Positions 35,011 to 35,054 of a stretch of DNA of 64,000 bases are shown one piece after another. The position numbers and the translations under genes are program-made. Below the pieces are notes generated by a model. That model had not been told where the DNA came from and searched no databases. It was given only the letters and a program-made list of their open reading frames with translations. The DNA is from Escherichia coli (GTDB lineage Bacteria > Pseudomonadota > Gammaproteobacteria > Enterobacterales > Enterobacteriaceae), in the NCBI RefSeq assembly GCF_003790525.1, contig NZ_CP033634.1, one strand, 5' to 3'. The stretch's first letter is position 1, and each line of letters opens with the position of its first letter.

Positions 35011-35054
35011 ATATAAGTAAAGCCCCGAAAAAATTTTCGGGGCTTTACTTATAT
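35011..35054. terminator. 44-bp perfect palindrome, likely bidirectional terminator between convergent genes
   Basis: ATATAAGTAAAGCCCCGAAAA/AATTTTCGGGGCTTTACTTATAT. Confidence 0.7.

Follow-up and report, generated by a model that had tools for sequence, protein, structure and literature searches.

A long perfect palindrome between convergent genes adjoining oriT of IncF plasmids, probably a shared bidirectional terminator

The stretch of DNA analysed here (the window, 64,000 nt) is part of an IncF plasmid; a comparison of 701 bases showed no difference from pMTY1886_NA3 (AP026457.1) and 97.7% identity to F. Around the locus of interest, hok/sok and a Frpo-like repeat are followed in order by yubO, yubP (a DUF932 gene), a palindrome, non-coding DNA, a lytic transglycosylase (SLT) gene known as orf169, oriT, traM, traJ and traY (Table 1). 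An earlier sequence-only reading of the window described the genes on either side of the palindrome as convergent, and so they are, with DUF932 on the + strand and the SLT transglycosylase on the - strand; despite this convergent layout, 244 bp of non-coding DNA separate the palindrome from the SLT stop codon. At its other end the palindrome runs into coding sequence, and its left arm holds the last base of the final sense codon of the DUF932 gene, the TGA stop (35006-35008) and a second in-frame TAA.

Table 1. The palindrome, its component parts and the neighbouring features, in window coordinates
Feature	Position	Strand	Remarks
Frpo-like 300-nt repeat, third of three copies	33316..33615		Directly upstream of ygeA
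yubO/ygeA homologue	33782..34068	+	First gene of the Frpo1, ygeA, ygeB unit; frameshifted in the window
DUF932 gene, 273 aa (yubP = ORF273 = ygeB)	34187..35008	+	3' end within the palindrome
Left arm, 27 nt, ATGATAATATAAGTAAAGCCCCGAAAA	35005..35031		A-rich tail on +; templates the U-rich tail of - strand RNA
GC-rich core hairpin, GCCCCGAAAA-AA-TTTTCGGGGC	35022..35043		9 pairs, 4-nt loop, -14.8 kcal/mol as RNA (predicted)
Unpaired centre, AA	35032..35033		Inside an A/T run
Right arm, 27 nt	35034..35060		Exact reverse complement of the left arm
U-rich tail of the + transcript, UUUACUUAUAUUAUCAU	35044..35060	+	Pairs with A-rich 35005-35021, lengthening the stem
Non-coding spacer, palindrome to SLT stop	35061..35304		244 bp
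Lytic transglycosylase gene (orf169 / gene X / gene 19 / ygfA)	35305..35907	-	Shorter annotated start: 35305-35814; convergent
Putative nic-region motif of oriT, GTGT/GGTGCTTTT	35897..35909	-	Sequence match to the nic motif

These genes have been studied under other names. Couturier et al. (PMC9849209) describe ygfA as the gene nearest oriT, in opposite orientation and without the T-strand as its template, and place the promoter Frpo1 upstream of ygeA and ygeB, the latter of which has also been placed downstream of ssp1a (bioRxiv 10.64898/2026.01.09.698686). By position we equate ygeA with yubO, ygeB with yubP and ygfA with orf169, and because of this match the palindrome would form the 3' boundary of the oriT-proximal early operon. 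Conjugation fell to about 4% when ygeA was deleted, and deletion of ygeB proved impossible (PMC9849209). The yubO/ygeA homologue in the window is frameshifted after approximately 20 codons at an A-run (~33842-33847) that is A6 here, A7 in AP026457.1 and A8 in F; the gene could be a pseudogene, the run could be prone to slippage, or the homopolymer could have been misread in sequencing.

On the - strand there is a sequence that we take to be the nic-region motif of oriT. The - strand is therefore the T-strand, which enters the recipient 5' end first, with the centre of the palindrome following ~870 nt behind that end; the orientation derived from the motif agrees independently with that of PMC9849209. 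The window contains three Frpo-like repeats of ~300 nt that are 66-98% identical to one another (24654-24953, 27982-28281 and 33316-33615), each carrying the inverted repeat CAGCCCACAAAATTTTTTACC...GGTAAAAAATTTTGCGTTCTG, and the T-strand of the third is predicted to fold into a long stem-loop. These copies are likely the single-stranded DNA (ssDNA) promoters of successive leading operons, and the third, by its position, corresponds to Frpo1/ssp1a, the ssDNA promoter of the unit that the palindrome closes.

The palindrome is a perfect inverted repeat with two 27-nt arms and a 2-nt centre, 56 bp in total. The sequence-only reading had reported it as a perfect palindrome of 44 bp, composed of a 21-nt string (35011-35031) and its exact reverse complement (35034-35054) with AA in between; the arms were verified, but the real extent is 6 bp greater on each side, and the central AA is not self-complementary. 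It is the longest perfect inverted repeat in the whole 64-kb window. In 20 first-order Markov simulations of the window the longest perfect arms were 8-12 nt, and an analytic calculation puts the chance expectation for arms of 27 nt or more at 3.7e-11 in a window of this size. No second copy is present in the window, and the palindrome had no match in viral contigs; with one locus in the window and one per plasmid, we rejected a dispersed repeat or the end of a mobile element (REP- or MITE-like). A separate cluster of AGATAACA repeats at 10398-10483, with direct and inverted copies and 16-nt perfect inverted arms, resembles an array of iterons or operators and has no connection with the palindrome.

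As RNA, the palindrome is predicted to fold on either strand into a 26-bp stem with a 4-nt loop, at -38.4 kcal/mol for the full hairpin, and in a 116-nt context the two strands fold at -51.3 and -47.7 kcal/mol (z = -9.4 and -9.8). The T-strand as DNA gives -32.1 kcal/mol in context (z = -10.1) and -26.5 kcal/mol for the 56 nt alone. TGCCGAA (34980-34986) and TTCGGCA (35064-35070) flank the palindrome and pair in the predicted folds of both strands, which is probably a matter of chance, judging by relatives in which the right copy reads TGCGGCA without compensation. No Rfam 15 family was assigned at its gathering score; sub-threshold matches to generic hairpin and leader families (24-32 bits, against 49-135 bits for gathering) overlap 34937-35102. 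The palindrome is absent from the gene tables of the records consulted, which list protein-coding genes only, and no description of the hairpin was found in the literature searched on orf169/orf273, yubP, or gene 19 and RNase III; the F leading-region sequence papers of the 1980s-1990s lay outside this search, and an earlier description there is possible.

Several other candidate features at the locus were considered and rejected. An open reading frame of 57 aa on the - strand (35230-35057), with its stop in the right arm, carries a 1-nt indel in F and is annotated in no record. The spacer showed no similarity by tblastn or blastn to the DUF5983 gene found at this position in IncFIIK plasmids, and is thus not taken to be a remnant of it. 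A sigma-70-like match on the - strand with its -10 box in the right arm scores 9/12, and such sites occur in the region at the frequency expected from shuffled sequence.

There is a second long hairpin inside the orf169/SLT coding region (35637-35683), with 22 continuous pairs on the mRNA (-) strand, two of them G.U, and a predicted energy of -37.1 kcal/mol (z = -6.8). As DNA it is a mere 91% complementary, which points to a structure that would act at the level of RNA. Expression of gene 19 of R1, the homologue of orf169, is reportedly controlled by RNase III, and we consider this internal hairpin a candidate RNase III site for control of that type.

What the palindrome most resembles is a terminator. 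As in intrinsic terminators, a GC-rich stem-loop followed by a U-rich 3' tract lies at the end of a transcription unit, past the stop codon, and as in bidirectional terminators a single hairpin with a U-rich tail on either strand lies between convergent genes. A consensus scan called a terminator-like site on the + strand at the palindrome, and by symmetry the - strand presents an identical stem and tail. On both strands the core is followed by UUUACUUAU, in which six of nine nucleotides are U and three U touch the stem (10 of the 17 nt of the whole + strand tail are U); this tract is interrupted, and weaker than a canonical run of seven to nine U. In this window a T-run comes after the full stem, but it is not conserved. 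Sequence inspection revealed no hairpin with a convincing U-tract in the interval from the orf169 stop to the palindrome, and the consensus scan made no - strand call there; an orf169 transcript extending as far as the palindrome would thus carry a 3' UTR of 244 nt.

We hypothesize that the palindrome is a shared, bidirectional, Rho-independent terminator of the two convergent units adjoining oriT, a reading that we consider probable. The working core would be the hairpin GCCCCGAAAA/UUUUCGGGGC (35022-35043), with the U-rich tail UUUACUUAUAUU after it on either strand, and it would serve a + unit comprising Frpo1, ygeA (yubO) and ygeB (yubP, DUF932) and a - unit comprising orf169/ygfA. The core begins 14 nt past the ygeB stop, a gap presumably large enough that a terminating ribosome does not block it. 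Complementarity of the two tails allows the RNA to continue pairing, up to a stem of 26-27 bp whose lower end lies in the ygeB stop; an RNA truncated at 35052 (~9 nt past the core) is predicted to fold into an 18-bp stem with a flush 3' end, at -27.3 kcal/mol. Such an extension would lock the terminated ygeAB mRNA into duplex right up to its 3' end, shielding it from 3' exonucleases, while the palindrome would act as a strong barrier to + strand transcription that otherwise runs antisense into orf169 and then into oriT. That + and - transcripts both end at the palindrome, and that the long stem stabilises mRNA, we infer.

The sequence-only reading proposed conservation across F-like plasmids as a check, and the element proved to be widely kept. 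With a 64-nt query centred on the palindrome, it was found in 4,520 of 72,556 PLSDB plasmids, at a single locus in each (a record matches twice, once for either strand of the palindrome), in Escherichia, Klebsiella, Salmonella, Shigella and other hosts. Among 11 sequences picked regardless of the palindrome, mean pairwise divergence was lowest in the arms (0.040), against 0.097 in the coding and 0.149 in the non-coding flank. A comparison with a Salmonella pSLT-type plasmid gave the same ranking, with differences at 5 of 46 positions in the arms, 10 of 44 in the coding flank and 21 of 50 in the non-coding flank. The length of the central A/T run varies between plasmids (A4-6 / T3-6), which alters the loop only and is consistent with slippage.

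More distant DUF932 genes, at 51-72% protein identity, are without this palindrome and instead carry unrelated GC hairpins of 6-13 bp within ~60 nt past the stop, in several cases followed by a T-run. Hosts of these post-stop hairpins include Klebsiella (IncFIIK; GCGCCGGGCAGCTGTCCGGCGTTTT), Cedecea (AAAAAGGAGCCAGAAGACTCCTTTTTT), Xenorhabdus (AAGCGGCAATTTTTTGCCGCTTTT), Serratia, Hafnia and Brucella. Because the hairpins of relatives are unrelated in sequence, the conserved feature is a hairpin, sometimes terminator-like, at this position; the 27-nt arms are, on the sequences compared, specific to the E. coli / Salmonella IncF lineage. Klebsiella IncFIIK plasmids have an extra DUF5983 gene between DUF932 and SLT (as in pC288_2 of Klebsiella pneumoniae, locus L029, 3355-3684), and where this region meets the convergent SLT gene there is a second hairpin, AAGCCTTCTTATATCAGAAGGTTTTTT. 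The hairpin and T-run between DUF932 and DUF5983 in these plasmids could be an internal terminator or attenuator.

Salmonella plasmids of the pSLT/pSEV type have lost an intact DUF932 gene, which is broken up into three open reading frames, yet they keep the palindrome with 25-nt arms. One of these, the non-mobilizable pFORC_078_2 (locus L003, 731-1549), has DUF932 split into frames of 89, 114 and 56 aa and retains the palindrome with two compensatory pair changes. Rearrangements within the element were observed as well: the 3' half of DUF932 is deleted in pSEN-BT of Salmonella Enteritidis (locus L004, 1398-1540), and the junction falls on a TAAAGCC microhomology within the left arm; a deletion in one metagenome contig (L064) extends from the palindrome centre to ~35119 in window numbering; and in another (L100) the left arm gives way to unrelated DNA past its ninth base. 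The palindrome seems to be prone to breakage or recombination.

Changes within the stem tend to preserve pairing. Across 18 plasmids and 23 pairs of the outer stem and core, 99.4% of cells are paired and four pairs have changed on both sides, a degree of covariation reached by none of 500 shuffles; slid registers are 40-49% paired. Some of these plasmid alleles were chosen for low palindrome identity, which favours double changes, and the events are few. We added 118 metagenome contigs found via the pattern of the flanking coding sequence, and hence unselected with respect to the palindrome. The combined 136 sequences represent 34 alleles, and all 23 pairs are Watson-Crick in 115 of the 136. 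Seven double Watson-Crick changes were found at five stem positions: L3 (G-C to A-T) and L8 (T-A to C-G), both in Salmonella, L7 (A-T to C-G), L14 (T-A to A-T and T-A to C-G) and L18 (G-C to T-A and G-C to A-T). At L14 both a T.G intermediate (p1106) and the finished C-G pair (pMB6206) occur on near-identical backbones. One further metagenome allele (L148) was rejected as a compensatory pair, its register showing U.G and C.A at different positions.

Single changes are biased by strand. Six give G.U on the + RNA (L1, L5, L12, L14, L20 and L23), and five of these occur in at least two contigs; four give C.A on the + strand (L7, L19, L20 and L22), all singletons, a difference in persistence with p ~0.024 for these ten events only (hypergeometric, by hand). 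One of the C.A singletons is in an E. albertii plasmid with a frameshifted DUF932 gene. The widespread SP15-type allele, with three G.U pairs, has a predicted + RNA energy of -37.6 kcal/mol, against -38.4 for the window allele, in effect no loss, and as - strand RNA it folds at -28.6, a loss of ~10 kcal/mol. We read this pattern as selection on pairing along the entire stem, chiefly in the + strand RNA, which is the ygeAB message. Template switching, however, can make double changes in a palindrome in one step, without selection on RNA (PMC7202029, PMC8604942).

Bidirectional terminators between convergent genes (TransTermHP, PMC1852404) are the closest known class: as at the palindrome, one hairpin with a GC-rich core serves two units, and the complementary A-rich and U-rich flanks tend to pair as the bottom of the stem. 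Members of this class were mapped by Ju et al. 2019, as described in bioRxiv 10.1101/2022.10.23.513370. A place directly at a stop codon is shared with them, a left arm that overlaps the stop is not. Their stems are usually ~5-14 bp, and the longest modal stem mentioned for terminators is 11 (PMC1852404), far short of the 26-27 perfect base pairs found here. The remark in the sequence-only reading that the palindrome is longer and more perfect than a terminator needs was thus correct, and is explained only in part. Unlike the homopolymer tails of usual terminators, those of the palindrome are of mixed A/T sequence, so their complementarity is not automatic but an added property, one that is kept by compensatory change. 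Something must maintain pairing of the outermost arms, because the compensatory positions L3, L7 and L8 lie beyond the point at which an RNA of core plus tail would be released; this could be read-through RNA, RNase III or correction at the level of DNA.

Two further classes of element invite comparison. Frpo/ssi elements are, like the palindrome, leading-region DNA that can fold into a hairpin on the incoming T-strand, and the palindrome closes the unit that Frpo1 opens. Frpo is ~300 nt, however, and its long imperfect stem re-forms -35 and -10 boxes (Masai and Arai 1997, described in PMC9849209, PMC7690428 and PMC12672017), whereas the palindrome is 56 nt, unrelated in sequence and at the 3' rather than the 5' end of the unit, and its 27-bp stem falls short of the 29 bp needed for two hexamers at 17-bp spacing. 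REP elements (bioRxiv 10.64898/2026.03.23.713779) are likewise palindromic hairpins that occur between convergent genes and can affect the 3' ends of both transcripts, but they form dispersed multi-copy families, and the palindrome is single-copy and confined to this locus. The antisense RNA IesR-1/PSLT047 of Salmonella pSLT (PMC3815029), pursued as a lead for overlapping 3' ends, lies at a different locus, beside mig-5 and tlpA.

The length and perfection of the stem leave room for other explanations. It is known that E. coli RNase III needs roughly two helical turns, ~20-22 bp, of uninterrupted double-stranded RNA. The perfect 26-bp stem is of this length on both strands, and read-through RNA that forms the full 26-27 bp duplex might be cut, leading to 3' decay of the ygeB or orf169 message, while RNA stopping at the inner tail without the full duplex stays stable. 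The logic would be that of phage lambda tI/sib, a terminator within a longer hairpin through which int is retroregulated via RNase III. As with tI/sib, the gene concerned belongs to a mobile element, and read-through past its 3' end would yield a duplex large enough for RNase III; the palindrome is, however, without sequence similarity to tI/sib, and cleavage and antiterminated read-through are hypothetical here. Maintenance by compensatory change of the outermost pairs L3, L7 and L8, past the likely release point, would fit such processing, as would the 22-bp hairpin on the mRNA strand of orf169 with the reported control of gene 19. Long stems also come trivially from complementary A/U tails, however, and the 6-13 bp hairpins of relatives are too short for RNase III, and we regard processing or retroregulation by this enzyme, beside or instead of termination, as unlikely. 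Alternatively, the arms may owe their perfection to replication itself, with an ordinary core terminator and a functionless outer stem homogenised by intramolecular template switching, a process that is established for quasipalindromes in E. coli (PMC7202029, PMC8604942). Three of the seven double changes are transversion pairs, for which no wobble intermediate is possible, and the rearrangement breakpoints inside the palindrome in three sequences indicate reactive DNA. Correction alone does not explain why the arms diverge two to four times less than both flanks, and it accounts for restored complementarity but not for retention in ~4,500 plasmids; the bias of persistent intermediates to G.U on one strand and the stepwise path from T.G to C-G at L14 also speak against it. 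We consider this by-product explanation quite unlikely.

Another option is a role as ssDNA during conjugation, in which the 27-bp hairpin of the T-strand could stop or release RNA polymerase coming from Frpo1, help jointly with the RNA hairpin to peel the transcript off its template, or slow or prime complementary-strand synthesis. The T-strand is predicted to fold into the same hairpin (at the energies given above), Frpo transcripts are reported to persist as RNA-DNA duplexes (PMC7690428), and synthesis of the complementary strand stalls at another leading-region stem-loop of F, ssp2 (bioRxiv 10.64898/2026.01.09.698686). Summed, the energies of the RNA hairpin (-38.4) and the DNA hairpin (-26.5), ~-65 kcal/mol, are of the same order as that of the 56-bp duplex (-64 with DNA, -88 with RNA parameters). 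On the other hand, the persistent G.T singles of the + strand are C.A mismatches on the T-strand, three of them in the outer stem of the SP15-type allele; the stem is too short for a promoter and dissimilar to the Frpo repeats; its folding energy does not come near the -75 kcal/mol cut-off with which ssDNA promoters have been mined (PMC12672017); and the hairpin is retained in non-conjugative Salmonella plasmids. Such a role we hold to be very unlikely. A narrower idea, that the length and perfection of the palindrome are an adaptation to ssDNA-templated expression, with RNA and T-strand hairpins offsetting the RNA-DNA hybrid at the end of the Frpo1 (ssp1a) operon, or in a variant with RNase III retroregulation of read-through RNA, is in our estimate improbable; if true, it would mean that the ygeAB message is freed for translation, and that the end of the transcript or primer is set before polymerases get to orf169 and the relaxase-bound 5' end. 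Finally, the sequence-only reading also offered a protein-binding site, and perfect dyad symmetry near oriT would suit a symmetric site for a dimeric protein on double-stranded DNA. Covariation with base replacement (A-T to C-G, T-A to A-T, G-C to T-A) shows that pairing is kept and base identity is not, asymmetric G.T states persist, and relatives carry unrelated hairpins; moreover, 56 bp is far larger than typical operators, and a centre that varies by 1-3 bp would shift half-site phasing, so that neither the half-site identity nor the fixed spacing of a symmetric operator is found. The transversion pairs and persistent G.T intermediates in particular disfavour this option, to which we assign a very remote chance.

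A bidirectional intrinsic terminator is the reading that we prefer. It was an option from the outset, and it has since held up on architecture, position, the hairpins of relatives and the covariation of pairs; termination itself we infer. The element is of an ordinary kind, extreme in stem length and with unusually clean comparative support. It would mark the 3' boundary of the ygeA-ygeB early operon, an operon tied to conjugation efficiency (PMC9849209), and would insulate orf169 and oriT from + strand transcription. The palindrome also bears on why deletions and rearrangements start at this position, and it provides a defined, mutable element with which termination and stabilisation of early transcripts made on ssDNA can be tested. 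Annotation pipelines could use it to mark this operon boundary in thousands of resistance plasmids.
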